This document shows, in pieces, positions 6,922 through 20,593 of a stretch of 34,460 nt of DNA (position 1 is the first letter of the stretch; each line of letters begins with the position of its first letter). Under the pieces are notes generated by a model. It searched no databases and was not told the DNA's origin. It was given only the letters and a program-made list of their open reading frames with translations. The stretch comes from a virus (Duplodnaviria > Caudoviricetes). The DNA lies in IMG/VR virus record IMGVR_UViG_3300020045_011725, positions 1 to 34,460 of that record; one strand, written 5' to 3'. Position numbers and translations under genes: made by a program.

Positions 6922-7692
6922 TTATAAATAACTGTAAACTTTTCTTTTTCTAATGGGGTTTAATTTATCTTTGAAGCGTTCTAATCCTGAATTACCAACA
7001 GAACCCCCATCATTAACTAATTTACCACTATTAATGATATCATTCGAAGTATAAAATAACCATCTGGAAAATTCGTCCACAAATGGCTCTTTTTTATCGA
7101 CAATACATAATCTGTAGTTTATATACTTCCAATTGGTATCCCAAACATTTACGGCCTTCAAATGTTCGTTTTCATCATATAAAGCCCGTTTACATAATCC
7201 AGGAAAATCATTTAGTAAAATATTGGTTATTATTTCAGCATCTTCGGCATCATTTTTGTGTTCAAACCAGTTGGATAATAAAACAGAACATTGTTTTATA
7301 TCAATCCAATCACAATATACCCAATTAGCATGATTTTTAGAAAATTTTCTAATATTTTTCCTGAAAACTTCCCATTGACCCCCTTTTAATTCTAAGAAAT
7401 GGGAAGGGTTATAGACATACTCCCAATCTAAAAAAGAAATAGTAGAATAAGATGGGTATATCTTACAAAAATCAGACCAAATTGGTTTGTTTGATTTTTC
7501 TTGTCTATTATCGCAAACATAAATTGGGGGGAATAATAACCAACCATCGGCATCAACATAAGCCCAGTCATTTTCAAAATAACATTGAGCCCCAGAAGCT
7601 AATAAATAAGATTCACTGCAATAAAAATTTGGTTCAATCTTCTTTTTCTTCAGAAATTCCAAATAAATTGATGGAGGTATTATTTTTTTCAT
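6922..7692 (-). CDS. DUF2156/MprF-C-terminal-like GNAT-fold (aminoacyl/acyl) transferase
   Basis: EYVYNPSHFLELKGGQWEVFRKNIRKF and VNDGGSVGNSGLERFKDKLNP match the two conserved blocks I recall for this family. Confidence 0.65.
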   Translation of the reverse strand: MKKIIPPSIYLEFLKKKKIEPNFYCSESYLLASGAQCYFENDWAYVDADGWLLFPPIYVCDNRQEKSNKPIWSDFCKIYPSYSTISFLDWEYVYNPSHFLELKGGQWEVFRKNIRKFSKNHANWVYCDWIDIKQCSVLLSNWFEHKNDAEDAEIITNILLNDFPGLCKRALYDENEHLKAVNVWDTNWKYINYRLCIVDKKEPFVDEFSRWLFYTSNDIINSGKLVNDGGSVGNSGLERFKDKLNPIRKRKVYSYL

Positions 7693-7795
7693 TTATTTTA
7701 GGTTTTCCACAACAGTTTTTTTCATAACTACCATTTTTTAAAGATTGGATGAGTTTTTGAGAAACACCCCCTGTTTTTCTTGATTTTCCTCCCAT
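7634..7795 (-). CDS. Unannotated 53-aa peptide MGGKSRKTGGVSQKLIQSLKNGSYEKNCCGKPKINEKNNTSINLFGISEEKED
   Basis: ATG 2 nt after the stop of the upstream gene; fills the only gap in the cluster; below ORF-track cutoff; overlaps the start of the next gene by 59 nt. Confidence 0.5.
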   Translation of the reverse strand: MGGKSRKTGGVSQKLIQSLKNGSYEKNCCGKPKINEKNNTSINLFGISEEKED

Positions 7796-7797
7796 AA

Positions 7798-8556
7798 TTA
7801 TTTTCTCCTTGTTATTGGTTTACTTTCCCGGGCTTCTTTTATTTGTATGATTTCATCATATAAACAACACGCAATAATGCCTGTGAAATTACGCTTGTTC
7901 ATATCTGCGCTTTTTACCAATATGAAATCTTCTTTTCCTTTTTTCGGAAATGAAAATTTAAGGTTGTCTTGAAAATTGAATAAGGCTTTAAAATCATCTG
8001 TTTTTATAGCGATAGGCCCAAAATCGTTCGCTAATTTTTCAGAAAACATTCCCGTTTCGTTTTTTTCAATTTCAACAACACCCCCTGAGTATATGTTTCT
8101 TTGAATCATTTTTAAAGTACCCCCGGCACTTCCAATAAACTCAATATGACTTAAATCATTATCTATTAATTCCAAAATATCACGAGGCAAAAGAACAGTG
8201 GGACGTTCCTCCAAATCTTCCATATAGGATTGGTATAATTCTTTAACCTCTGCCGGTGACAATTCGGTAGTGCCACATATTTTTTTCCTTTGAAAATCCC
8301 CTTTTTTAGAATAAAAAACAATTTTATTATCTTTTATATCAAATTCATTACTGTCGTAATCGTTTGCTTTAAAAGATATGGGTGTTTCGAAGCGTCCTTC
8401 TGATTGTCGCAATCTAAAAGACAATAACACCGTATGGTCATAATTCATAATAAATATTTCACTATCTTGGGCATAAATAGTATTTTTTAAACCACCATTT
8501 TGGTCTAATGCCACGGCTTGAGCGAAAATAGCCTCAACTAAATTGTTTATTTTCAT
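7798..8556 (-). CDS. Putative second sliding clamp (PCNA/gp45-like two-domain fold)
   Basis: 252 aa; IFIMNYDHTVLLSFRL resembles the PCNA AMDxSHVxLVxLxL strand pair; C-terminal FTGIIA strand; fold is inferred only. Confidence 0.45.
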   Translation of the reverse strand: MKINNLVEAIFAQAVALDQNGGLKNTIYAQDSEIFIMNYDHTVLLSFRLRQSEGRFETPISFKANDYDSNEFDIKDNKIVFYSKKGDFQRKKICGTTELSPAEVKELYQSYMEDLEERPTVLLPRDILELIDNDLSHIEFIGSAGGTLKMIQRNIYSGGVVEIEKNETGMFSEKLANDFGPIAIKTDDFKALFNFQDNLKFSFPKKGKEDFILVKSADMNKRNFTGIIACCLYDEIIQIKEARESKPITRRK

Positions 8557-9953
8557 ATTATTTCTTTTATTAAATTTTCACGATAATCTGTATTCTCTTT
8601 AATCCAAATCAAGCCATCTGAATCCATCCCACAAGGGATTAATCCAGCACACCAACGTTGGCTATATGCCATATTCCCCCCCAAATTCCAAAGCATTTTT
8701 ACTTCTTTTTTTAAATCTTCAGTAAGAAAACCCCCATTTTTATTTACATAATTTTCAAAATCTGACCAAGAAACAGCGACCCCTTTTTTTAATATGTATC
8801 TTGCGGCCATAACCGTACATCCATAATTCCAACCACCTTCAAAATAATCCTCAACTTCACAACAAATAGATTGGTCATTATTAATTTGATTACCCATATC
8901 AAAAGTACTACAACTAAATCCGTAGTCCCTAAATAATTCCATGAATTTACCCAATAAAAGAGAGCCTAATGGCTGACTATCACACCCCACTGTAAAAATA
9001 CGGTCATAATCTAAGCCAATATTCATAAAACATTGACGTAATCCAGAATTATTTGCTGTATACGAATAAGTATCAAAAGTTATATTCCTAACACCAGCCC
9101 CCCACATATCTTCCATGTATTTTGTTAAATATTCCGGTTCATCATTGGTTAAAAATAAATAGGGTTCTATTCTTGCCACTACACGAACTCCAGCCGCACA
9201 TAAATTTTTAATACCTTCTAAGCGTTGTTCATATGATGGCGCTCCAGGCTCTAATGCTTTTAATAAAGTATTATTTGCCGAAATAACAGTAACATGTACT
9301 GCGGCTTTCGCTTTATTTTCTGACAATGCTTTCACATAGGGGTCAGTCCCAACTACATTTGATTTAGTGTTCAACATTACTGGGTAAGCTATTTCTTTCA
9401 GATATTCTAACATAGATAGGCTGACCCCGGCTTTTTGTTCATTTCTTAAAAAATCTTCAAAACGAATACCCATTCGAACCGGAATTTCTAAAGCAAAGGC
9501 TTTATTAATATGCGTCAATTTTTGTTTTTCAGGCATGGTCATGCCTCTAAAACGTTCCATTTTATCTAATTCTTTTTTGTAGTATTCCGGGTTGCAATGT
9601 CGTAGCCCCATTGTTTTACTATTGTCAAAAAAAGCAGTATATAAAGAAGCCCGGAAAGCATTCGCAAAACAATAAATACAATTATAAGGACAAACCAAAC
9701 CATCCCAAATATCCATATTAAAAGGTAAGGGACAAGCAGCGGCACGAACGGATATTTCCAGAAAATTATTAATTTCTTCAGTGTTGAGCAACCGCTCTTG
9801 TTTTCGCCATTCCCCTATTTTTAAATTGAATTGGCTATAATTTTTTTTTCGTCCTTTCTCTTGTACAATTTCGGCCTTTCTATTTGAAGAATACAACTGA
9901 GTCATCCGGGGGACAACTCTGGCAATAATTTTTCTTAACTCCCAATAATTCAT
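8553..9953 (-). CDS. Radical SAM enzyme (SplB/COG1533-like)
   Basis: CPYNCIYC CxxxCxxC motif, NTKS, LEPGAPSYEQRL, RIEP, C-terminal CC. Confidence 0.88.
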   Translation of the reverse strand: MNYWELRKIIARVVPRMTQLYSSNRKAEIVQEKGRKKNYSQFNLKIGEWRKQERLLNTEEINNFLEISVRAAACPLPFNMDIWDGLVCPYNCIYCFANAFRASLYTAFFDNSKTMGLRHCNPEYYKKELDKMERFRGMTMPEKQKLTHINKAFALEIPVRMGIRFEDFLRNEQKAGVSLSMLEYLKEIAYPVMLNTKSNVVGTDPYVKALSENKAKAAVHVTVISANNTLLKALEPGAPSYEQRLEGIKNLCAAGVRVVARIEPYLFLTNDEPEYLTKYMEDMWGAGVRNITFDTYSYTANNSGLRQCFMNIGLDYDRIFTVGCDSQPLGSLLLGKFMELFRDYGFSCSTFDMGNQINNDQSICCEVEDYFEGGWNYGCTVMAARYILKKGVAVSWSDFENYVNKNGGFLTEDLKKEVKMLWNLGGNMAYSQRWCAGLIPCGMDSDGLIWIKENTDYRENLIKEII

Positions 9954-9987
9954 AATGTAGTTTTATAATATTATACAATTTTTGTAT

Positions 9988-10800
9988 TTAATGACCGATA
10001 TTCCAAAATAAAATTGGTGCTTTTAATGATTTTTCATTTTCTATCAGCCATTGCCAGGCTTTAGCGTCATAATAAGGGTGACATGGAAATGGTGGAGTTA
10101 TTTGACTTTTTTGAGTATATTCCCATCCAGGGTCTACTAACTTAAAATTATTAGTTTTAAATATTCCCGAATTTATTGATTGGGCTTTATTTAAAATTTG
10201 ATTTGCTTTTTTATTAACATCTCCTGTTCGGGTCATTATCCCATATAAATCCCAAGATGAAGGCCATTCGTTTAATATACTCATTATACCAGAACATATA
10301 GTACCACTACCAACGCAAACTATTATGGATTTAATATTAAAATCCAAATAATTTAAAGTGCCCCAAAATTCATGGGCTGTTTCCTGTATTGTTTCTTTAA
10401 AAGGTAATCCTAATGGCAATAATACAGAATTTGGTATTTTTTTTAAAATGGATTTACTAATATACCAATTCACCTTAGCCATACCAGCTTTAATTGGTAT
10501 GATTTCAGCCCCTAATTTATACCATTGTTTCCTATGATATTCCAATACTTCTGGAGTTTTAATATATTGAGGGTCAAAAATAATAGCTTTCATCCCTAAT
10601 TCTTTACACGCCCAGGTAACCCCCCACCCAGCCATTGATATACTGGTTTCTGTGTACCCAACAGTGGTTATTCCTTGTTTTTTTAATTTTTCTAAATGTG
10701 GGATGATGCCCCGGCACTTGGAAAACGGAGGGGCAGGGGATTCAAAACATAAGTCCTCCCGTTTAACATAAATATTTCCATACAATTCCACAGGGGTCAT
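9988..10800 (-). CDS. PLP-dependent fold-type II enzyme, phage type
   Basis: IYVKREDL...SKCR (Schiff-base Lys), phosphate loop VGSGTICSG, PYYDAKAW, terminal LFWNIG. Confidence 0.85.
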   Translation of the reverse strand: MTPVELYGNIYVKREDLCFESPAPPFSKCRGIIPHLEKLKKQGITTVGYTETSISMAGWGVTWACKELGMKAIIFDPQYIKTPEVLEYHRKQWYKLGAEIIPIKAGMAKVNWYISKSILKKIPNSVLLPLGLPFKETIQETAHEFWGTLNYLDFNIKSIIVCVGSGTICSGIMSILNEWPSSWDLYGIMTRTGDVNKKANQILNKAQSINSGIFKTNNFKLVDPGWEYTQKSQITPPFPCHPYYDAKAWQWLIENEKSLKAPILFWNIGH

Positions 10801-11849
10801 AGTCCGGCATCTTTTAAATTAAACATTTTTTTATTAGTCCCATTAATTAAGGCTAAACCGTCATTAAAATCACCAGTACCATCATTTGTTTCTTTTATCG
10901 TTTTTTCAATGGAATATCCTTTTTGACGACATAATTTAAAATGATGCGAGTTAAAAGTACAAGGATTTGGAACATTAACGCCACAACAAGTATTCGCTTT
11001 TTCAACCCAATCTTTACCAGTATTAACAAAGTCTGGACAACCAAGTATTATATTATATTTTTTGGAAATTTCTAACAAATTAGGTAGTATTTTTTTCCAT
11101 TCTTTATCTTGATTGTAAAACCAAATTTTTTCAATATCCACACCAATCGAATGTAATCTTTTAGCCACGTACGCATTGAAATGGAAATTATATGTATTGT
11201 ATCTATTAATTTTATGGGCTTTTAAGAGTTTTAAAGTATCTTCAAAATCTTTTTCGGTATGAAACCCTGGAATAAACGGTTCCCCATTAACGCCTCCTGG
11301 TATGCCTAAACTTTGTAAATATGATAAATGTTTAATTCTATCTAAAGGGGGGGTTGTTCTTTTTCTTTCAAATATTTCCCAATCTTTTTCTAATCCAGGG
11401 GAAACAACAGGCATAATGGTAATTAAATTTTTTTTATATGCTCTTATTATTTTCTTTTCGTATTCCATCATTATCCCTGTAAACCGGGTCTGTATTACGA
11501 AAGTCCAATCTAATTTTGTTAATATATTGAATATTTCTTTGCTAATTTTATGTTCTTTTTCGGCTTCTTGAAAGGGGTCTGTCTTATTACCCCATCGTAT
11601 TGTTTTTTTATGCGCTAAAGCGCTTGAAAGTGTAGTTTTTGGAAATTTATTTTGTAAAGACGTTATTAGTTTTTTTTCTAATAAGAATAAATCAGCGGGT
11701 TTTAATTCTTTTCCCCAAACATGATTCAAATTTCGTAAATAACAATGGTGGCAATCAGTAAGACAATTACCATAACTGTCTAAAGATAACGAAAGGGGGC
11801 AATATAAACTGTCCCCCCTTATCGTTATACTGTTTTTTAATAGTTCCAT
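10797..11849 (-). CDS. Radical SAM enzyme (SplB/COG1533-like), paralog of 8553-9953
   Basis: CLTDCHHC CxxxCxxC motif, GNKTDPFQ, EPFIPG, C-terminal TCCG. Confidence 0.88.
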   Translation of the reverse strand: MELLKNSITIRGDSLYCPLSLSLDSYGNCLTDCHHCYLRNLNHVWGKELKPADLFLLEKKLITSLQNKFPKTTLSSALAHKKTIRWGNKTDPFQEAEKEHKISKEIFNILTKLDWTFVIQTRFTGIMMEYEKKIIRAYKKNLITIMPVVSPGLEKDWEIFERKRTTPPLDRIKHLSYLQSLGIPGGVNGEPFIPGFHTEKDFEDTLKLLKAHKINRYNTYNFHFNAYVAKRLHSIGVDIEKIWFYNQDKEWKKILPNLLEISKKYNIILGCPDFVNTGKDWVEKANTCCGVNVPNPCTFNSHHFKLCRQKGYSIEKTIKETNDGTGDFNDGLALINGTNKKMFNLKDAGL

Positions 11850-12708: not shown

Positions 12709-14247
12709 TCATAAATAACTCCCAATAATGGGTCTCCCTCGTTTTAAATTCTGTAAAACAACAATCTCATCGGCGCTGCTAAACTCGTCCTCCCTCAATA
12801 TTAACTTATTGATACGCATCAAACCAATCTTTTTTTCCCGGTCTTTCGGGTCTTGGTTTAATCCATACATTGCCGTAACATGTCCGTACTTACGCTTATC
12901 CTCACTAAAATTACTAAGTTTCAAGCGGTGTTGATCATACGATTTAGAATCAGCTTGGGTTGCTGTTATTAGTATACAATTTTTCTCTTGGTTCAGTCCT
13001 CTCAAATCTTTCCATATTTGATTTTGTTGATGTCTAAATTCAACCCGGGCATCACAAACTAATAAATCAGCGTAATCAATAATAATAAAATCAGGCGCAA
13101 ATCCATCTTCTTTTTCCCAAATACCCAAAATAGCTTTTATTTGCTTAACAGACAAACTACCATTGGCGTGGGTGGATAGTCTAAATTTTCGTTTATGTTT
13201 AATGAAGAACTCCGAATATACATCTTTGGCCTCTTCTTTTTTTAATGGACTAATTGCCGGGGTTTCTTTAATCCAAGGAACGCCCCAATGAGCGTCTTCG
13301 TATTCCTCACAATTATAACAGGGTTTATAATCTGGATTTTCTTTTAAAGCATCTACAAGAGCGTCTTTCGTAACCTCCTCCCGAATCATTTCTTCAGTCA
13401 TATTATCAAATACACCAAAATCACATTCTCTTTCTTTTTTCCGGCATGTATTTCGTTGGTTATGTATACAATCCCGCAATGGCTCGTGGGAAGCTACGCA
13501 ATATTTTTCTTTGTTTGATTTTCCCGTTAAATTTATAGCAATACGCATTAGTTGCTGCCCTTCACTCATATCCCCGGCTTGGAAAAAGGCAACTTTGTAT
13601 TTTTTACAAGCCCGTAAAGCTATTTCAATCATTAAAAATGTTTTACCTCTTTTTTCTGAAGCCATAAAAGCAATAAAAGCCCCTCGAACAAACTGGTCAT
13701 TCCAAAATTTACCTAATTGCTTTGGCCATTTTAAAAGTGGGTCTGCCTGAGCCTCAAAAGCCTTTTCAATTTTTTCCAAAACAGCATTACTGCTTAAATC
13801 GATATCAGTATCAGAAGCGTCTGGGATGGGCTTAAAATCACAAGCATTTTTTTCGGCTTCTTCAATCTGACTACTGGCAATCAAGGCTTGTAATGTATCA
13901 CAATATAGGATCAACCTACGTTCTCTGAAATGCTTTTTTGATTGGGCAATAGCGTAATCTAAATTGAAGGACTCTTGTTCATACTCTTCTGACAATCCGG
14001 GCAATATTTCTTCTTCAATCTCGTTTGTTATTTCTTTAGAAATCTTCGATGAAGCAACCTTTTCATAAAAAATACTTTCAATATTACGTCCCGGGGCTTT
14101 ATCGAATTTTTCGAAATATTCCCAAACCCAACTTGCCAGTCGTTTTGCTGTAGGGGATTCTAAGTAGGAAACATCCCAAATATTTCTGATTTGACGTAAA
14201 AAATCAGTGGATGTGATTAAATAGATTATTATTTTACGTTCAATCAT
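12709..14247 (-). CDS. dnaB: Replicative helicase, DnaB/gp41-like (SF4), with Cys-rich insertion
   Basis: Walker A-like ASEKRGKT, IIIDYADLL, TATQA, FSEDKRK; insertion DCIHNQRNTC..EC..PCYNC. Confidence 0.85.
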   Translation of the reverse strand: MIERKIIIYLITSTDFLRQIRNIWDVSYLESPTAKRLASWVWEYFEKFDKAPGRNIESIFYEKVASSKISKEITNEIEEEILPGLSEEYEQESFNLDYAIAQSKKHFRERRLILYCDTLQALIASSQIEEAEKNACDFKPIPDASDTDIDLSSNAVLEKIEKAFEAQADPLLKWPKQLGKFWNDQFVRGAFIAFMASEKRGKTFLMIEIALRACKKYKVAFFQAGDMSEGQQLMRIAINLTGKSNKEKYCVASHEPLRDCIHNQRNTCRKKERECDFGVFDNMTEEMIREEVTKDALVDALKENPDYKPCYNCEEYEDAHWGVPWIKETPAISPLKKEEAKDVYSEFFIKHKRKFRLSTHANGSLSVKQIKAILGIWEKEDGFAPDFIIIDYADLLVCDARVEFRHQQNQIWKDLRGLNQEKNCILITATQADSKSYDQHRLKLSNFSEDKRKYGHVTAMYGLNQDPKDREKKIGLMRINKLILREDEFSSADEIVVLQNLKRGRPIIGSYL

Positions 14248-15050
14248 ATTGGTAATTGTATTTTTTGCAAACTAACTGTACTTACATGGGTATAGATTTC
14301 TGTTGTTTTACTTGAATAATGTCCTAATATTTTTTGAATATACCGTAAATCAACTCCAGCTTCTAACATAGCCGTTGCCGATGAATGTCGGAGTAAATGA
14401 AAATGATATTCTTTCCCTAAATATTGTTTAACTATTTGATTACAACTTGTTGCGGAGTATTTTAAATCAAATTGTCCGTTAAATAAATAAACAGAAGGTC
14501 TACAAGATTTAAAATATAAACGTAATAAATCAAGTATTTTTATGGAAAGTGGGACTATCCTATCTTTTTTACCTTTTGCTTGTCTAATATTTATTATCAT
14601 TCTTTTTGAATCTATATCTTCAATTTTTAAGTTAATAATTTCACTTACCCGTAACCCAACTGAATACGCTAATGAAATAATAGCTTTATGTTTTATATTT
14701 GGAATTTTATCAATCTTATCCAATAAAAATTCTTTATCTATAACTTGTGGTAAATGTTTTTCTTTACGGGGTCTTTGAAAATCAATTTTATCATATTTCT
14801 TTTTTAATACTTTTTCATATTCAAATTTCAAAGCATTAATTATTTGGTTTTGTTGAGAAATAGATGAAAATTTGTATGTAGTTAAGTATTCTGAAAAATC
14901 ATTTGATGTAAGATGTTGGTAATATTTGTTTCTATTTTCTATAAACTTCTCAAAATAATGAGAATACATTTGAATAGTTCTTTCCGAATAATTAAAATAT
15001 TTTAAAGATTGTGTATAAATCTTTAAAAATTCGTCTATATTTTTATTCAT
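14244..15050 (-). CDS. Tyrosine recombinase (integron-integrase-like/XerD-like) lacking the IntI-specific insertion
   Basis: N-terminal SAM-like YSERTIQMY; catalytic GLRVSE, KGKKDR, HLLRHS, LGH, TTEIYTHV; stop overlaps the helicase ATG; ATG at 15050 (TTG at 15056 possible). Confidence 0.92.
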   Translation of the reverse strand: MNKNIDEFLKIYTQSLKYFNYSERTIQMYSHYFEKFIENRNKYYQHLTSNDFSEYLTTYKFSSISQQNQIINALKFEYEKVLKKKYDKIDFQRPRKEKHLPQVIDKEFLLDKIDKIPNIKHKAIISLAYSVGLRVSEIINLKIEDIDSKRMIINIRQAKGKKDRIVPLSIKILDLLRLYFKSCRPSVYLFNGQFDLKYSATSCNQIVKQYLGKEYHFHLLRHSSATAMLEAGVDLRYIQKILGHYSSKTTEIYTHVSTVSLQKIQLPI

Positions 15051-15056
15051 ACTCAA

Positions 15057-15093
15057 ATAGTTATGCGTTAAAATTTATATATTATAGTTATGT
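15057..15093 (+). other. attI-like primary recombination site (core G/TTATGT at 15087)
   Basis: First GTT of the array, no upstream hairpin, directly 5' of the recombinase; 9-bp direct repeat ATAGTTATG at 15057-15065 and 15084-15092. Confidence 0.6.
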
Positions 15094-15108
15094 TTAATTT
15101 TTAAAATT

Positions 15109-15405
15109 TTATGAATTTGTTTTATACTTCGCAATCCATTCATCATAAGTCAGTGTATTAAATTGTAAATATCTCTTTGCAATTTCAGAATTATATTGTC
15201 TGTTTTCTTCCATTAAATTACCATCTCTAAACATTTCACCAGTTCTAATTGCTTTCCAATCTAATCCACCATTCCATTCAACAATTAACATTTGTGACAT
15301 CACATCTTTTAAATGCTCTTGTGTTGTTGTTTCACTTTGCATATTTATAAAACCATCAGTTACTTGTTTCATATATGCTTCGTATTCCTTTTGATATTCT
15401 CTCAT
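15109..15405 (-). CDS. Cassette 1 hypothetical protein (98 aa)
   Basis: ORF fills cassette 15087-15484. Confidence 0.75.
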   Translation of the reverse strand: MREYQKEYEAYMKQVTDGFINMQSETTTQEHLKDVMSQMLIVEWNGGLDWKAIRTGEMFRDGNLMEENRQYNSEIAKRYLQFNTLTYDEWIAKYKTNS

Positions 15406-15436
15406 ATTTTCATTTGTATAAAATTTTTAAAACTAA

Positions 15437-15490
15437 ACATAACAACAAATATATTGCATTAAAACGACAATATATTTGCAACCGTTATAG
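15437..15490 (+). repeat. attC-like site 1 (short, 54 bp)
   Basis: ACATAAC-aa-CAAATATATTG...CAATATATTTG-caacc-GTTATAG. Confidence 0.8.
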
Positions 15491-16126
15491 TGCATTGTAA
15501 AAAGACTGCCACTCCGATTGAGATTTGAATTTTGAAAAGTATTCATTTCCTTCAAATATCAATTTAAAATCAGTCCATTTTAATTTCTCATTTACAGTTG
15601 GGGTATATTTTTCAACTCCAAACGTTTTCGCTCCTATTCGTTTTGCAAAGTCAACAGTAAAGTAAAAAGCCTTTAAATTATTTTCTGCCAACACTTTAAA
15701 CCCATGCTCTAAAATATCAATTACTTCTTGTTTGCTTTTCTCTTTGCCGATAATCATTGATAATCTTCCACTATGTATAAAGTTATGGCAATAATGGCAA
15801 AGTGGCTCAATACTTTTTACTTCGCAAATTCCCGTATTATAATCAATATTCCAAAACTCATGTGCCTCTAACCATTTATGTTTTTTAGCCTCTGATTTAG
15901 CAACTCCACAAGCTACGCAATGGTAATCTGTGCTTTTATATGTTTTTTGCCTTGTTTCATCCCACCAATTTTGACCCTTAATTTCTCGTGGTGCAACACC
16001 ATGTAAGGGTTTTGGAATGTGGGGGTGGCAAAGAATTTCAGGTTTCAAAACCAACGCACTATAACACTCGCTATAAGTAATGGCGGAGTTCGTGCTGTTA
16101 TTATCGTTTGTGCTTTCTATTGTCAT
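15485..16126 (-). CDS. Cassette 2 HNH-like Zn-binding nuclease-domain protein
   Basis: CVACG...LEAHEFW...LCHYCHNFIH; stop codon is the TAA of the core site; likely ATG lies inside the attC loop. Confidence 0.7.
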   Translation of the reverse strand: MTIESTNDNNSTNSAITYSECYSALVLKPEILCHPHIPKPLHGVAPREIKGQNWWDETRQKTYKSTDYHCVACGVAKSEAKKHKWLEAHEFWNIDYNTGICEVKSIEPLCHYCHNFIHSGRLSMIIGKEKSKQEVIDILEHGFKVLAENNLKAFYFTVDFAKRIGAKTFGVEKYTPTVNEKLKWTDFKLIFEGNEYFSKFKSQSEWQSFYNAL

Positions 16127-16188
16127 TTGTTGTATTTTGATAGTGAGTAGTTCTAAATCCGCCACTACTCATAGCGGAACCGTTAGCG
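16059..16188 (+). repeat. attC-like site 2 (130 bp)
   Basis: CTATAAC-act-CGCTATAAGTAATGGCGGA...TCCGCCACTACTCATAGCG-gaacc-GTTAGCG. Confidence 0.88.
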
Positions 16189-16425
16189 TTCATGATAAAA
16201 GACTGTACCAACAATCTTATCCGAATTATTGAAACATTGGTTAATAAATTGAGCATGAAGCAACGCTTCGTATTTGTTTTTAGTTGTTAATATCTCTGAA
16301 CCGTCAACAACTAAATAAGGTATTCTGGCAATTTTGTATTTGCCACCTAATTGCTCACCGATAATATTCCAAGCTGTTTTTGATTGGCTGTGAACTACTT
16401 TTGTTTTGATTTTTGGATTTTCCAT
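16183..16425 (-). CDS. Cassette 3 hypothetical protein (80 aa)
   Basis: ATG at 16425 (MENPKIKTK); stop is the TAA of the core site. Confidence 0.75.
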   Translation of the reverse strand: MENPKIKTKVVHSQSKTAWNIIGEQLGGKYKIARIPYLVVDGSEILTTKNKYEALLHAQFINQCFNNSDKIVGTVFYHER

Positions 16426-16468
16426 TATGTTCTTTTTTAAAATTAATACTCTGAAATAAAGCACGAAA

Positions 16469-16598
16469 CGCTAACACAGCGTATAAAACAAAAGGGTTGC
16501 AGTAGTATGCGTTGTGTAGTGATTTCTATTGGCGTTCATCTCGTGGGATAAAGACACACTCTTTAATCCCTTTCGATTTCATACGCTCATCGTTATGC
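16469..16598 (+). repeat. attC-like site 3 (130 bp)
   Basis: CGCTAAC-ac-AGCGTATAAAACAAAAGGG...CCCTTTCGATTTCATACGCT-catc-GTTATGC. Confidence 0.85.
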
Positions 16599-17111
16599 CC
16601 CATATTGGATAATGACCGTCTCCGAAGCATTGTATTTGTTTTTATAATATTTATCTCCCTTGTAAAGACTAATAAATGGGCAATCAATATTCAATTCCTT
16701 CCATTTTTCAACCGCAAACTCAACAAGTTGCTCAAAAGTATCAAACCTTTCAGTTAATCCCGTATCTGGATTTTCTTTGATAAAATCAGCGTGTTCAATA
16801 TCATTTGCCCACCTAAAGGCTCTTTGATTTGAATTATGTCCATCTTTTTCATCCAATTGTTTTGCTAACTCCAATGTTAAAGGCCTTTTAAGTTCAATAT
16901 TTTTACCCAAGTATTTTACGTTATGGTCGTCAACATTATCAATGGTTACATTCTCTTTTTCTGACAAAATTAGAGTGCCGTATAAATGAGTTGCATCGGC
17001 ACATTGCCCAGCCCACGAATCAATATTCAGAATAGCTAAATAAATACGGGGCATAACACTCGCTATAAGTAATGGCGGGTTAGTCTGTTGTTTATCTTTT
17101 GTGCTTTTCAT
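16593..17111 (-). CDS. Cassette 4 hypothetical protein
   Basis: Stop is the TAA of the core site; start at 17111 (attC loop) or 17054 (within the inverse core). Confidence 0.72.
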   Translation of the reverse strand: MKSTKDKQQTNPPLLIASVMPRIYLAILNIDSWAGQCADATHLYGTLILSEKENVTIDNVDDHNVKYLGKNIELKRPLTLELAKQLDEKDGHNSNQRAFRWANDIEHADFIKENPDTGLTERFDTFEQLVEFAVEKWKELNIDCPFISLYKGDKYYKNKYNASETVIIQYGA

Positions 17112-17178
17112 ATAGTTTATTGTATTTCGATAGTGAGTAGTTCTAAATCCGCCACTACTCATAGCGGAAACGTTATAA
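17051..17178 (+). repeat. attC-like site 4 (128 bp), near-identical arms to site 2
   Basis: Shares ataacactcgctataagtaatggcgg and gatagtgagtagttctaaatccgccactactcatagcggaa with site 2. Confidence 0.9.
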
Positions 17179-17184
17179 CCAACC

Positions 17185-17958
17185 TTAAAAGAGCGTCGGT
17201 GCTTTTTGATAGTTGGTTACTAAAATTTCAGTTCTTTTGTTCTTTAAGTTTGTTCTTTCTCCAATGTAGATAACATTTAGTCTCCTTTCTTTTGCTTGGT
17301 TTAAAATAAATTCGTTATCAAATTCACTCATTGCAAACATGCACTTGCTATTTTGGAGCGTATCAAATAAATCAATACTATCCTGTTCAGTAAATGAGTG
17401 GCTGTAATTGTCATTTGTTGCTATGTATGGAGGGTCTGCATAAATAAGCGTTTTTGCTTCATCATTTCGCCCATCAGTTTGAAAAGAAATATCCTTTATA
17501 AACTTTCTAAAGTCGGTATTCCCAAACTGCACGCCAAATAAATATTTTGCCGTTGCATCAAGTAAGTATTCAAAGTTTTCAGGATATTCATTTTTAGTTG
17601 CTGTAAACCTCATTTGCTGCCCAGTTCCTAAGTATGTAAAATTGCTTAAAAATATAAACCTCAAAGCCTTTTTTATAGTGTCTGTTTCTTCATTTTGTTT
17701 CCAGTAGTCAAGTAATCCTGCATGTAGAGGCATTAGTTTAAATGCTTCTTTTAACTCATTTCGGTTATTAGTAGCAACATTAAACAAGTTAAAAACATCG
17801 TTATCAATATCATTTACAATATTGTAATTTGCTTTTGGTTTGTTAAAAAACATCCCACCTGCCCCAAAAAACGGCTCAATATAAATTCTATGCTGTGGAA
17901 AATGCTTTTGTATTTCCTTTGCAATTTTCTGTTTATTTCCTAATCTCCTTAAAATCAT
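17185..17958 (-). CDS. Cassette 5 DNA adenine methyltransferase (Dam/D12 class)
   Basis: RLGNKQK, motif I YIEPFFGAG, VNDID, motif IV YADPPY, terminal TEILVTNY; ATG at 17958. Confidence 0.92.
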   Translation of the reverse strand: MILRRLGNKQKIAKEIQKHFPQHRIYIEPFFGAGGMFFNKPKANYNIVNDIDNDVFNLFNVATNNRNELKEAFKLMPLHAGLLDYWKQNEETDTIKKALRFIFLSNFTYLGTGQQMRFTATKNEYPENFEYLLDATAKYLFGVQFGNTDFRKFIKDISFQTDGRNDEAKTLIYADPPYIATNDNYSHSFTEQDSIDLFDTLQNSKCMFAMSEFDNEFILNQAKERRLNVIYIGERTNLKNKRTEILVTNYQKAPTLF

Positions 17959-17971
17959 AACAAAAGGCTGG

Positions 17972-18101
17972 TTATAACACGCGGTAAAAAACATGCCGGG
18001 TGTAGTGGTTTATTAAAATATATAGCTCTGTTCATAATTCTCTGTATCTTGATAGTGTTTCGCTCGCAATCCGGCACGATTTCTTACCGCAGCCGTTAGT
18101 G
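17972..18101 (+). repeat. attC-like site 5 (130 bp)
   Basis: TTATAAC-ac-GCGGTAAAAAACATGCCGG...CCGGCACGATTTCTTACCGC-agcc-GTTAGTG. Confidence 0.85.
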
Positions 18102-18105
18102 CCAA

Positions 18106-18534
18106 TTATGAAAGACACTTCTGCGTAGCTTTTTCGGGATTTGAAGCAAAATAAGGTTGCCCCCATTCTCTGGATTTAGAATCAATACATTGAAATCTAT
18201 TCCAAGCACGTTCTAATGGTCTAATTCCGTAATCACCAAGTAATCTACCAACCCATGAAGGATGAACAGTTTCATCATCAATTGATTGTTGAATCCATTT
18301 ATGGTCAATGTATTCTTTGCAAATAATTAATAAGCTAACTTTTGCGTTTCTTAATGTGGTTTTATCGTGTTGCAAATAACCACTACCATTTGAAAAGTCA
18401 CAAGAATCGGGGTGTTTAGGTAATGTATTCATAATTGAATTTACTCTATCAATAAGTAATTCATACTTAATACATTCTTGCTTGTCGGTAAATTCTACTC
18501 CGTCAATTGCTTTAAATTTTGTAATTGTTTCCAT
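18106..18534 (-). CDS. Cassette 6 hypothetical protein (142 aa)
   Basis: ORF fills cassette 18095-18698; N-terminal FKAIDGVEFTDKQECIKYE. Confidence 0.78.
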   Translation of the reverse strand: METITKFKAIDGVEFTDKQECIKYELLIDRVNSIMNTLPKHPDSCDFSNGSGYLQHDKTTLRNAKVSLLIICKEYIDHKWIQQSIDDETVHPSWVGRLLGDYGIRPLERAWNRFQCIDSKSREWGQPYFASNPEKATQKCLS

Positions 18535-18574
18535 TATTATAATTTTAAAAGTTGATAATCAAATAAATAACTGG

Positions 18575-18704
18575 CACTAACACCGTATATAAAAAATAGC
18601 GGTTTTAGTGGGCTTATTTAGGCTACTGCTACTAATTAATATTCTACTATTTTGATAAGATATTGCTTCTAAATCGGCTACTGCTCATACACGAACCGTT
18701 AGCA
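18575..18704 (+). repeat. attC-like site 6 (130 bp)
   Basis: CACTAAC-ac-CGTATATAAAAAATAGCGG...TCGGCTACTGCTCATACACG-aacc-GTTAGCA. Confidence 0.82.
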
Positions 18705-19019
18705 TTAATTTGCCACTACACTATTCATCCACCATTTATAAGCTCGCATTTTTAAATAGCATGTGTCGTTTCCAGTAACATATTTGCCACCCTTATCTTC
18801 AAGTTTAAAATAGTATTTTTTATCCACAAGTACATACTTGCCATTATTCATTTTTGCAATCTTCCAGTCAGTTTTTGACATATCAAAATCACAAAACTCT
18901 TTTACTTCTTTATTAGTGTAGTGGTTATTGTCAGAGTGGCATCCCACGCACAAAACTAATGCTAACAAAGTATAAATAAAATACCTTGCTTTTTCGGTTA
19001 ATTTAAAACTGTTTTTCAT
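18705..19019 (-). CDS. Cassette 7 predicted lipoprotein (104 aa)
   Basis: Basic N-terminus, hydrophobic core and lipobox-like LCVG/C; signal peptide is encoded by the attC-7 loop and left arm. Confidence 0.68.
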   Translation of the reverse strand: MKNSFKLTEKARYFIYTLLALVLCVGCHSDNNHYTNKEVKEFCDFDMSKTDWKIAKMNNGKYVLVDKKYYFKLEDKGGKYVTGNDTCYLKMRAYKWWMNSVVAN

Positions 19020-19088
19020 ATCAATTTATTTTTATAATTAAAAATTCGTGTTTCAAATCCGGTACTTTACTTATACCAACCGTTATAA
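18960..19088 (+). repeat. attC-like site 7 (129 bp)
   Basis: TGCTAAC-aaa-GTATAAATAAAATACC...GGTACTTTACTTATAC-caacc-GTTATAA. Confidence 0.85.
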
Positions 19089-19094
19089 AACAGT

Positions 19095-19496
19095 TTAAGA
19101 CAGCGTTTCAAAGTAGAATCTGCCTGAAAATGCTTTATCAGTTGTTATATCGAAAAGCCTTGCAATTTCTAACATATACGCTTTTCTTTTAATTGATTTC
19201 TCAATTTTAGGGTTCTTTGGTAGTTTTGAAATTCTAATATGAAAATCTTTCATAAAATTTCTAAACTGTTCTAAATCCATCGAGTGTTTATAGTGGTTTA
19301 CAATTCTTTGAGAAGGTAGCATATTTTGTAAATTATGATTCTCTTCAAACATTGCAGAATTATTTACCCACCAGTTTCTTCTTACTGCCTTTACGTGATC
19401 AACTTGCCAATCGGGTAGTAATTCTGTCCCCGTATAGGCACATTTGCCACCAAGCAAGGTTCTAACTATTTCCCTATTTTTCTTTGACATATACAT
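19095..19496 (-). CDS. Cassette 8 HNH endonuclease-like protein
   Basis: GGKCAYTG...WQVDHVK...NMLPSQRIVNHYKH; start 19496/19490, or 19592 inside attC-8. Confidence 0.78.
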   Translation of the reverse strand: MYMSKKNREIVRTLLGGKCAYTGTELLPDWQVDHVKAVRRNWWVNNSAMFEENHNLQNMLPSQRIVNHYKHSMDLEQFRNFMKDFHIRISKLPKNPKIEKSIKRKAYMLEIARLFDITTDKAFSGRFYFETLS

Positions 19497-19509
19497 AATA
19501 AAAACCGTT

Positions 19510-19638
19510 TTATAACACATAATATAAAATAGCTGGGTGTTATCGGACTTTTTAGCCCGCTTGCTACCTGTTAGTTTTATGGCGTTGGACATGTTAGTAG
19601 CTCCAAATCCCAGCCATTTCATATTATCAACGTTATAT
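19510..19638 (+). repeat. attC-like site 8 (129 bp)
   Basis: TTATAAC-ac-ATAATATAAAATAGCTGGG...CCCAGCCATTTCATATTAT-caac-GTTATAT. Confidence 0.87.
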
Positions 19639-19681
19639 GCCACTTTAAGAAGCAACAGCACATTGTTTAATATTCCAATGA

Positions 19682-20593
19682 TTATAATTTTAATAAATCC
19701 CCTTTTTTATTTCTATATTTTCCATCCCCAGATAAATACCATGTTTCTCCATTTTCAATTACGCTATCTGGTTTATTATTATACAATTTTTCGCGAGAAT
19801 ACAACTTCATTTCCGCATGGTCATCTAACCAACGACATTGGTTGATCCAAGTTGTTGGATTTGGTATATATTCTTTTATGGACCATTGTTCAGATTTAAT
19901 TTGGGAATTAATTGCTTTTTCTATTATTTCAAAAGTTGGTCGTATTTTATCCTTGGATTTTTGGGAACATAATTCCATCCAAGATATTAGCGCACTACCC
20001 TTTCCAGCTTTTTTTGGGTATATGTTCCAAAAGTTTTCAAATTGATTTATAGATAATTTTTTGGGTTGTATTTCTTTTGAAAAAAGTCCATCATCGATAG
20101 AGTTAGTATTTTTTTCTTTAGTATTATTTTCTTTTAGTCTTATTAGTAGTTGGTTTCCCGTAGGCGGGTTTCCCGTAGGCGGGTTTCCCGTAGGCGGGTT
20201 TCCAGTATATGGCTCAATAGGCTCTAATTTATGGGATTTTAATATTGATAAGTGTTTTTCTATGTTAAAATTGAATGGAAAATCTGTATATGCCCAAAAA
20301 GAACCTTTAAACTTTTTCGTCAATCTATCCCTGTATCTTACTCTTTTTAAATAGCCAAATGTTTCCAATTCTTTTATTCCGGCGCGAATAGCAAAATTTT
20401 GTTCCGGCATCATTGTTTTGATTGTTTCAATATAACTTTTCCACCCTTTTTGGTTAGACAACAAAATTCCCAAAATGACTTTGGCTTTGGCTGTGATATT
20501 TGGGTTTTTTAAAAATTCATTAGGGATTTGAGTGAAATTAGAATCAAGGCTGCAATTGATAGCGTCCGGGAGGTTTAAATTAGTACGTTCCAT
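19682..20593 (-). CDS. Phage replication initiator / replisome organizer (wHTH N-terminus)
   Basis: NFTQIPNEFL..AKAKVILGILLS N-domain, (GNPPT)3 linker, FENFWNIYPKK and YIPNPTTWINQCRW C-domain; ATG at 20593. Confidence 0.8.
   Translation of the reverse strand: MERTNLNLPDAINCSLDSNFTQIPNEFLKNPNITAKAKVILGILLSNQKGWKSYIETIKTMMPEQNFAIRAGIKELETFGYLKRVRYRDRLTKKFKGSFWAYTDFPFNFNIEKHLSILKSHKLEPIEPYTGNPPTGNPPTGNPPTGNQLLIRLKENNTKEKNTNSIDDGLFSKEIQPKKLSINQFENFWNIYPKKAGKGSALISWMELCSQKSKDKIRPTFEIIEKAINSQIKSEQWSIKEYIPNPTTWINQCRWLDDHAEMKLYSREKLYNNKPDSVIENGETWYLSGDGKYRNKKGDLLKL
20152..20203. repeat. Tandem 15-bp repeats GGTTTCCCGTAGGCG x3.5 (putative origin iterons)
   Basis: Perfect GC-rich copies at 20152, 20167, 20182 plus partial at 20197, next to an AT-rich tract inside the initiator gene. 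Confidence 0.75.

Follow-up and report, generated by a model that had tools for sequence, protein, structure and literature searches.

The closest described systems are the classical integrons, represented here by IntI1/attC-aadA7 and VchIntIA/VCR, as described in the available parts of PMC2727003 and PMC5027507. According to these parts, classical cassettes self-pair over 9-11 nt (PMC2727003), and the G:T pairs of attC sites are biased towards the bottom strand (1.24 versus 0.39 G:T, PMC5027507). The I2 helix of the integrase and the extrahelical bases of the site are held to enable integron integrases to act on folded single strands (PMC4792948 and PMC7790495, available sections). Phage-borne integrons and CALINs, whose cassettes often carry methyltransferases as is the case here, were described by Qi et al. 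2023 (PMC9892861). In the accessible portion of that paper the sites were handled as ordinary attC, IntI1 was the only integrase assayed, on sites trimmed to 7-nt R boxes, P12002L_attC1 was the sole site of six without a verified junction, and neither an I2-less integrase nor a position-11 rule was found. P12002L_attC1 is a 40-nt-class hairpin of the family analyzed here, with a loop identical to that of the first hairpin of our locus. No description of this site type was found in the available parts of PMC11523902, PMC13616975, PMC8618304 and 10.1101/2022.02.06.479319.

The window, i.e. the whole 34,460-nt stretch of DNA that was analyzed (IMG/VR record IMGVR_UViG_3300020045_011725, a virus of the Caudoviricetes), contains a tyrosine recombinase gene, a docking site and an array of eight cassettes (Table 1). 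AAC and GTT cores around a palindrome folding into R and L arms were found at 8/8 window junctions and also at 213 phage junctions. The loop motif of C1 is common to 24/25 sites of the 40-nt hairpin class. The terminal half-site is likely left over from a cassette that was lost or from the original docking site.

Table 1. Features of the recombinase-cassette locus (positions refer to the window; A11, A at position 11 counted from the GTT)
Feature	Coordinates	Strand	Ends (left/right)	Hairpin (nt)	Remarks
Tyrosine recombinase gene	14244..15056	-			270 aa from TTG (ATG at 15050); PF00589 + PF13495
attI-like docking site	15060..15101	+			ATATAT 15077-15082; crossover GTT 15087; no hairpin upstream
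Second GTTAT with A11 in docking site	15060	+
Cassette C1	15087..15483	+	15087/15443		Position 11 = 15097/15433; ORF of no assigned function on -
C1 hairpin	15444-15483			40
Cassette C2	15484..16181	+	15484/16065	116	HNH-like ORF on -
Cassette C3	16182..16591	+	16182/16475	116	ORF = phrog_38014, no assigned function
Cassette C4	16592..17171	+	16592/17057	114	ORF without assigned function on -
Cassette C5	17172..18094	+	17172/17978	116	Dam-family adenine methyltransferase on -
Cassette C6	18095..18697	+	18095/18581	116	ORF without assigned function on -
Cassette C7	18698..19081	+	18698/18966	115	104-aa ORF
Cassette C8	19082..19631	+	19082/19516	115	HNH-like ORF on -
Terminal GTT half-site	19632..19646	+			A11 present, no partner end

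The first-pass annotation had claimed that each cassette has its own matching inverted ends with an invariant mismatch at position 11. In seven cassettes (C1, C2 and C4-C8) the ends matched over 14-15 nt and their first 14 nt differed only at position 11, where the left end has A and the right end, read as its reverse complement, has G. These were all the GTTA...TAAC pairs that are 150-2500 nt apart and have at most two mismatches in the whole window. In 200 dinucleotide-type shuffles of the window the mean number of pairs with at most one mismatch was 0.25 (maximum 2) as against the observed seven, and position-11 A/G pairs did not occur at all. C3, for which a 1-nt bulge had been suggested, had A/G at position 11 and matching bases at 1-10 and 12-13 when one right-end T, located on the G-bearing strand, was looped out. 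Pairing was within the cassette and not across an attC, as had been proposed: own ends had mismatches at 1/14 positions (5 for C3 without the bulge), whereas non-own combinations had 4-10. A was also confirmed at position 11 in 9/9 GTT sites (the left ends of C1-C8 and the terminal half-site, Table 1).

Position 11 was tabulated in 159 cassettes from 39 phage loci, which had been defined from hairpin junctions without use of position 11. The left end had A in 159/159 and the right end G in 156/159 cassettes (39 of these after a 1-nt bulge). The cassette ends are reused and related, so that the counts do not represent independent events. No Watson-Crick pair at position 11 was found among the 98 phage cassettes matching at positions 5-10, and 195 of the 252 one-mismatch pairs of the phage relatives were position-11 A/G pairs; perfect pairs numbered only nine. 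The same mark was present in 52 one-mismatch pairs of cellular loci (80 loci, mostly Bacteroidota chromosomes). It recurs in the inner L arm, where A occupies the mirror position in 208/213 phage junctions, and of the 205 units, 152 have the partner G directly opposite and 48 have it displaced by one base. Exceptions were the three right ends lacking G, the perfectly paired first cassette of a Nitrospirae locus (L128) and the family site in phage P12002L, which has no G11. Among 45 classical control rows, in which a few cassettes are represented by both strands, position 11 was A/G in four and had a matching base in 26, and the 739-kb scan made for this control yielded no position-11 A/G pair. 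This comparison (156/159 versus 4/45) favors the earlier suggestion that position 11 may be a recognition determinant specific to this system.

On the bottom strand the position-11 difference would form a G·T wobble, and on the top strand an A·C mismatch. When the cassettes were circularized and both strands folded, a check that the first-pass annotation had recommended, the bottom stem was more stable in 204/204 phage and in 44/47 cellular circles, and the circles contained 3.7 G·T pairs on the bottom as compared to 0.1 on the top strand. C3 folded without constraints favored the top strand. These sites and classical attC sites (PMC2727003 and PMC5027507, available parts) have much in common. 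The AAC and GTT cores are alike, both sites form hairpins whose R and L arms enclose a variable loop, self-pairing is best in the circular cassette, the bottom strand is more stable and richer in G:T, strands cross over within the GTT, at the distal end of the hairpin, and a hairpin-free docking site heads the array. In integrons, pairing of a cassette's own ends over 9-11 nt and a general bias towards G·T have been described before. There are, however, several differences. Self-pairing extends over at least 14-15 nt here (132/205 units at 14-15) versus 9-11 nt, a length also seen in the 45-cassette control. The first-pass annotation had compared the 14-15 bp match with the 7-bp classical core, but the fair value for classical self-pairing is 9-11 nt (PMC2727003, available part). 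There is one fixed wobble per arm as opposed to an average of about 1.2 G:T per classical site. The central spacer is 2 against 4-7 nt (best offsets 2 and 5 in 170/418, 2 and 6 in 95/418) and not 5-6 nt on each arm, and some sites have a T bulged out of the G-bearing strand near position 10. The extrahelical bases of the R''-L'' arm (G16, T23/24) are absent: in 99-100% of the 213 junctions, in-register pairs are formed at L positions 3-5 and 7. The optional L-arm bulge is on the opposite (L') side here, whereas the classical control was selected for, and shows, an L'' bulge.

The recombinase adjoining the array has an IntI/XerA-like N-terminal domain. It shares the PF13495 N-terminal family and the catalytic residues with IntI (TIGR02249; VchIntIA, PDB 2a3v): in the alignment R136, K161, H220, R223, H246 and Y255 are all present and invariant with canonical IntI. 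Both adjoin a docking site and a cassette array. The window recombinase, however, lacks approximately 46 residues, among them the I2 insertion of integron integrases, which is a gap in the alignment with IntI4 (2a3v) and two canonical IntI. It scored below the NF040815 and TIGR02249 cut-offs and reached 151 of 265 bits against the integron-integrase family. The spacing from the catalytic R to HxxR was 83-90 aa in 133/133 family proteins (83-85 aa in the phage members) versus 130-132 aa in 68/70 canonical IntI, and I2 was absent in all 133 family integrases read. In a quick tree of 76 of the 203 proteins, the family integrases branched apart from canonical IntI (SH-aLRT 100). The best protein matches among cultured phages were Cellulophaga phage integrases (39% identity). 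An AlphaFold single-sequence model of the integrase had a mean pLDDT of 40 and was set aside.

In 39 distinct first-cassette junctions the docking sites were hairpin-free, were located 20-75 nt from the estimated integrase start and had a conserved ATATAT. Positions -8 to -6 were invariant (39/39), -10 and -9 were conserved in 37/39, and A11 of the L half (position -16) was present in only 23/39. The GTTAT repeat found at 15060 has no fixed distance in relatives. A cassette that heads one array can occupy an internal place in another, indicating entry at the docking-site GTT; in classical integrons, too, cassettes enter at a GTT in a hairpin-free attI beside the integrase. Homologous cassettes of relatives retained the downstream hairpin, and their neighbors switched exactly at GTT. 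Common cassettes were found in different order in four loci (L040, L042, L043, L050), duplicate cassettes in three (L005, L086, L110), and duplication was also seen at first position. Across the family the ends are not fully private, as 45 of the 362 left 15-mers have more than one cargo family. Thus the unit of gain, loss and reordering is the cassette with its own downstream hairpin, as in integrons, and the retained hairpins, the exact changes at GTT and the duplicates at first position agree with the earlier idea that each unit was once a circle with a complete hairpin. A circle footprint is a known property of classical cassettes, over 9-11 nt (PMC2727003, available part). The sequencing runs matching the window covered pieces of it, all with shares of at most 0.08, and no RNA run was among those listed. 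In a contig of one run (X2) other sequence was joined to the window exactly at the start of C2; the C8 body (19075-19515) was within an 868-nt contig of another run (X3), the flanks of which were not placed with that piece.

We think it probable that a cassette's own ends are the outer-arm halves of an integron-type hairpin, and that the position-11 G·T tells the I2-less recombinase which strand to bind and cut. In the excised single-stranded circle, the bottom strand would fold into a site with two-fold symmetry, consisting of an R arm of 14-15 bp, a bulged spacer and an L arm of similar length. The enzyme would cut the bottom strand at AA/C, and the cut strand would be joined to the duplex docking site adjacent to the integrase gene. 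Integron-type single-strand exchange on the folded bottom strand, with replication resolving the product, is suggested by the cassette boundaries, the generally known cleavage polarity of tyrosine recombinases and the folding energy. The cut strand would have T at position 11, paired as A:T in the docking site and as G·T in the bottom hairpin, whereas the top hairpin would present C in an A·C pair. As only the cut strand would have T at 11, the system would be restricted to a single fold and a single orientation, a task performed by the extrahelical bases and I2 in classical integrons. The position-11 wobble is therefore likely, as predicted from sequence, to be a strand and orientation selector that replaces both. 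With A11 and G11 universal, any two neighboring cassettes could still form T·G at 11, but the full private arm would exist only in the circle, therefore integration would be favored over excision. The data fit equally well whether the T is read, the shape of the wobble is read, or only the stability of the stem counts.

The wobble could represent only the thermodynamic bottom-strand bias reported for classical attC (PMC5027507, available part), its position inherited from one ancestral site and not read by any protein. Here, too, other positions favor bottom-strand G·T (L6 in 71/213, L8 in 35/213, and optionally position 0), second R-arm mismatches were bottom-type in 29 and top-type in 5 cases, and end scaffolds are reused; part of the position-11 signal is thus a general attC stability bias. 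We nevertheless regard this explanation as unlikely, because stability alone could come from any position, yet position 11 stayed fixed while positions 5-10 diverged into 362 distinct left 15-mers, the mark occupies mirror-equivalent places in both arms, and A11 is retained in double-stranded first-cassette junctions too.

Xer recombinases act on fixed duplex sites. Like Xer and XerA, the window recombinase is a compact two-domain enzyme without I2, its nearest solved structures by sequence are archaeal XerA/XerC-like (4a8e, 5hxy), and no inverted homologous cassettes were detected (0 minus-strand matches). These features would suit Xer-like action on double-stranded DNA, with G11 as an anti-determinant against inversion between a cassette's own ends and the hairpins incidental. 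Such a mechanism is very improbable, since the partner sites here belong to mobile cassettes, vary in sequence and fold back on themselves, and a fixed dif-type duplex site with two conserved arms was not found: what is conserved in the L arms is pairing rather than sequence, and positions 5-10 match only within a cassette (cross-junction identity 0.28-0.53), which is sensible only for fold-back pairing.

We consider more doubtful still the view that the A/G pair is a scar that arose when the cassette was created, one end having been copied from the other with the same non-matching base always at 11. It would account for the match of the variable positions within a cassette, for the left end that is shared by up to eight cargo families without relation to each other and for the cargo family that is found between either of two end pairs. 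However, the L arm bears the same mark, a neutral scar would revert from G to A, yet perfect pairs were 0/98, and the array encodes no copying enzyme.

The genes of the phage units were antisense in 145, sense in one and unassigned in 59 cases (n=205), those of the cellular units sense in 39, antisense in four and unassigned in five (n=48). By these orientation counts the phage units depart from the integron pattern of sense genes behind a Pc promoter; a Bacteroidota -7 promoter box occurred in only 33 of the 205 loops on the top strand and in 12 on the bottom strand. As gene orientation flips between phage and cellular units and the mark does not change, the mark tracks recombination geometry and not the gene strand. 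The HNH-like ORF of C2 has an in-frame ATG within the hairpin loop, and the 104-aa ORF of C7 starts in its own hairpin loop. That the stems act in RNA (as G·U-containing hairpins for termination or processing) or that protein coding fixes the base is hardly credible: the phage coding strand is the bottom strand and an in-frame loop ATG, by which the arm is translated, occurs in 47/94 long-loop units, but the cellular genes are on the opposite strand with the mark unchanged, R-arm pairing is confined to the two ends of one cassette, G11 is retained in the 40- and 80-nt classes (translated through in 2/78), and no Rfam family reached its gathering score in the window, with a single chance-level match over the array.

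The preferred reading, a hairpin whose strand is chosen through the position-11 wobble, would mean that cassettes move here without I2 or extrahelical bases, and one base position offers a direct handle on the mechanism. No description of the fixed wobble position mirrored in both arms was found in the literature searched. IntegronFinder 2.0 reported one complete integron in Bacteroidetes (PMC9024848). Set against this single annotated integron, the 26/80 cellular and 56/81 phage loci with at least two such cassettes imply that a large gene-capture system would escape annotation, and the A11/G11 rule provides a simple detector for such arrays. Tentatively, these arrays may belong to a second lineage of hairpin single-strand recombination that does not depend on I2, is widespread among Bacteroidota and their phages, uses a fixed G·T per arm in place of the extrahelical-base/I2 code for strand choice and could possibly serve as a living model of an intermediate between Xer and integron.

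The eight small cassettes of the array (C1-C8) had been described in the first-pass annotation as each having its own matching inverted ends with a mismatch at position 11, the eleventh base from the GTT crossover (A at the left end, G in the reverse complement of the right end). All seven end pairs quoted there did differ at position 11 alone, and C3, said to fit with a 1-nt bulge, paired once one T was looped out. These seven were the only GTTA...TAAC pairs with two or fewer mismatches per 14 nt in the whole window, and the position-11 A/G pair was absent from all 200 shuffles of the window. Pairing was confined to the cassette as claimed: the two ends of one cassette differed at one of 14 positions, ends taken from different cassettes at 4-10.

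The window is a complete contig of 34,460 nt with phage genes for terminase, portal, DNA polymerase A, DnaB-like helicase and primase, and the recombinase gene and the array lie between the helicase gene and a replication-initiation gene. A Dam methyltransferase and two HNH-like proteins are among its cargo. Because the Dam gene or a hairpin is common to the window and cultured Flavobacteriaceae phages, and the cellular relatives of the recombinase are mostly from Bacteroidota, the phage probably infects a member of that phylum.

Features of the window
Feature	Position	Strand	Remarks
Tyrosine recombinase	14244-15056	-	270 aa
Docking site (attI-like)	15060-15101		
Cassette array C1-C8	15087-19631		
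Hairpins after C1-C8, in order			40, 116, 116, 114, 116, 116, 115, 115 nt
Tandem repeats in the replication-initiation gene beside the array	20101-20144		15-nt unit, four copies, encoding PPTGN repeats; possibly iterons
Radical SAM, PLP-dependent and LPG-synthase-like domain genes in a row	6922-10800		adjoins DNA polymerase; possibly a DNA-modification cluster

The larger phage sample consisted of 80 viral loci carrying a related recombinase, in which position-11 A/G made up 195 of 252 one-mismatch end pairs and nine pairs were perfect. To avoid selecting for the position-11 result, hairpin junctions in these loci and the window were located with no more than the core sequences and the initial 12 nt of the inner arm, and were then chained. 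Of 212 distinct candidate cassettes 98 matched at positions 5-10; all 98 had A on the left, 87 had G and 11 had T-G (a one-base bulge) on the right, and none had a Watson-Crick pair at position 11. When one bulge was permitted, 159 of the 212 qualified, with left A in 159/159 and right G in 156/159 (117 direct, 39 after a bulge; bulged base T in 38/42). Such counts do not represent independent events, since the same end may occur in several cassettes: the 436 cargo families had 362 distinct left 15-mers, 45 of which served more than one family. End matching fell to background by position 16, the pairing being 14-15 nt long in 132 of 205 units and 20-27 nt in some. Homologous cargo was found with two different matched end pairs (loci L030:rc 11295-11780 and L060:rc 12782-13331), and a single left end was paired with up to eight unrelated cargo families; ends and cargo seem to have been combined independently during cassette creation.

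As a classical control, 45 cassettes from 11 loci adjoining integrases with I2, the helix insertion typical of IntI, were analyzed. Their own ends matched at position 8 in 42/45, at 9 in 29/45, at 10 and 11 in 26/45 and at 13-14 in 8-9/45, a decay that agrees with the self-pairing of 9-11 nt given in PMC2727003. A/G at position 11 occurred in four of the 45, and a 739-kb scan gave no position-11 A/G pair. For classical attC sites, a general excess of G:T on the bottom strand is described (1.24 vs 0.39 per site; PMC5027507). Unlike classical attC, the family sites have no L'' extrahelical bases. No description of a fixed position-11 wobble or of I2-less cassette arrays was found in the literature searched, which included few subscription journals and no preprint supplements.

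The mark was also seen in 52 one-mismatch pairs of 80 cellular loci, any other class reaching at most three. Cellular arrays lie behind the integrase stop codon with mostly sense genes (39 vs 4 antisense), whereas phage arrays begin ahead of the start codon with antisense genes (145 vs 1 sense). As the mark is the same despite the opposite gene orientation, it tracks recombination geometry and not the transcribed strand. Phage sites are inverted relative to genes and integrase when compared with chromosomal arrays (window 14244-19646 vs loci L110, L119 and L131), which may mean that phages and hosts draw on separate cassette pools; in phages, genes are encoded on the strand that can fold. Three Nitrospirota loci (L099, L106, L128) have related I2-less integrases with arrays, hairpins of ~50 nt and arms of 18-20 nt; one first cassette there is perfectly paired at position 11, and in another a further wobble occurs at position 9.

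The first-pass annotation was right about the outer (R) arm but overlooked a mirrored mark in the inner (L) arm. With inner-arm positions counted from the spacer outward, T stood at 3 in 210 and A at 11 in 208 of 213 junctions. Among 205 units, G lay directly opposite this A in 152 and was displaced by one base in 48. The site thus has two-fold symmetry, each arm bearing the mark. A/G differences at L6 and L8 were optional, and the core-adjacent bases were A and C in most sites. All of these form G·T pairs on the - strand and A·C mismatches on the + strand. When the cassettes were circularized and both strands folded with loops kept unpaired, the bottom (- strand) stem was the more stable in 8/8 window, 204/204 phage and 44/47 cellular circles (mean advantage 4.5 and 3.6 kcal/mol for phage and cellular circles); free folding favored it in 7/8 window circles.

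Inner hairpin lengths of the 213 phage junctions cluster at ~40, ~80, ~117 and 180-198 nt, in steps of ~38-40 nt. The loop of the 40-nt class is nearly invariant (24/25; window 15444-15483, L163:30012-30053 and 30926 region). Of 94 long-loop (~117 nt) phage units, 47 contain an ATG that lies in frame within the loop on the bottom strand, mostly 50-66 nt ahead of the core after an A-rich stretch (window 16066-16181, 18967-19081 and related loci), so that the recombination arms are translated as protein N-terminus; the 80-nt and 40-nt classes had 2/55 and 0/23.

The window recombinase has intact catalytic residues. All 133 family proteins read had a spacing of 83-90 aa from R to HxxR; among 70 canonical integrases it was 130-132 aa in 68. 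Family and canonical IntI separated in a quick tree of 76 proteins with a midpoint root only, where 31 phage proteins and one Flavobacterium bin formed one branch among the cellular ones.

Cassettes occupied different places in related loci: cassette 353 headed the arrays of L042 and L043 and was internal in L050, cassette 347 headed that of L040 and came third in L042, and L005 and L086 each had one cassette at the first and a later position. Identity of shared cassettes ran from GTT through the downstream hairpin up to the next GTT. C2 and C8 were also found in contigs from other sequencing runs, and in the contig with C2 a different sequence joined exactly at 15484.

One site of this type, P12002L_attC1, belongs to the 40-nt class. 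In PMC9892861 the IntI1 junction was verified for all of six phage sites except this one, which was cloned with 7-nt R boxes; because of these boxes and of a right end without G11, the missing junction is a hint only. The cultured Polaribacter phage P12002L has the 40-nt-class loop twice, with own-end cassettes, and was absent among the matches listed for the window integrase.

Unit boundaries, symmetry, invariance and the fact that I2 and L'' extrahelical bases are missing are direct observations, beyond which a mechanism may be proposed. In tyrosine recombinases the 3' phosphate stays on the binding-arm side; with the crossover in GTT at the far end of the hairpin, the cut strand would be the bottom one. 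T11 would then be on the cut strand in both the duplex docking site and the bottom hairpin; the top hairpin would present C in an A·C mismatch. Since besides A only G can pair with that T, G11 would keep the bottom stem paired but disturb both the top fold and the right end in duplex form. Judged from sequence, the mark probably acts in strand and orientation choice, and read-out of T, read-out of the wobble and stability are candidate modes that fit the present data alike. The system is integron-like in its working, yet it lacks the I2 and extrahelical bases by which membership is tested, and its site grammar is real and highly conserved.
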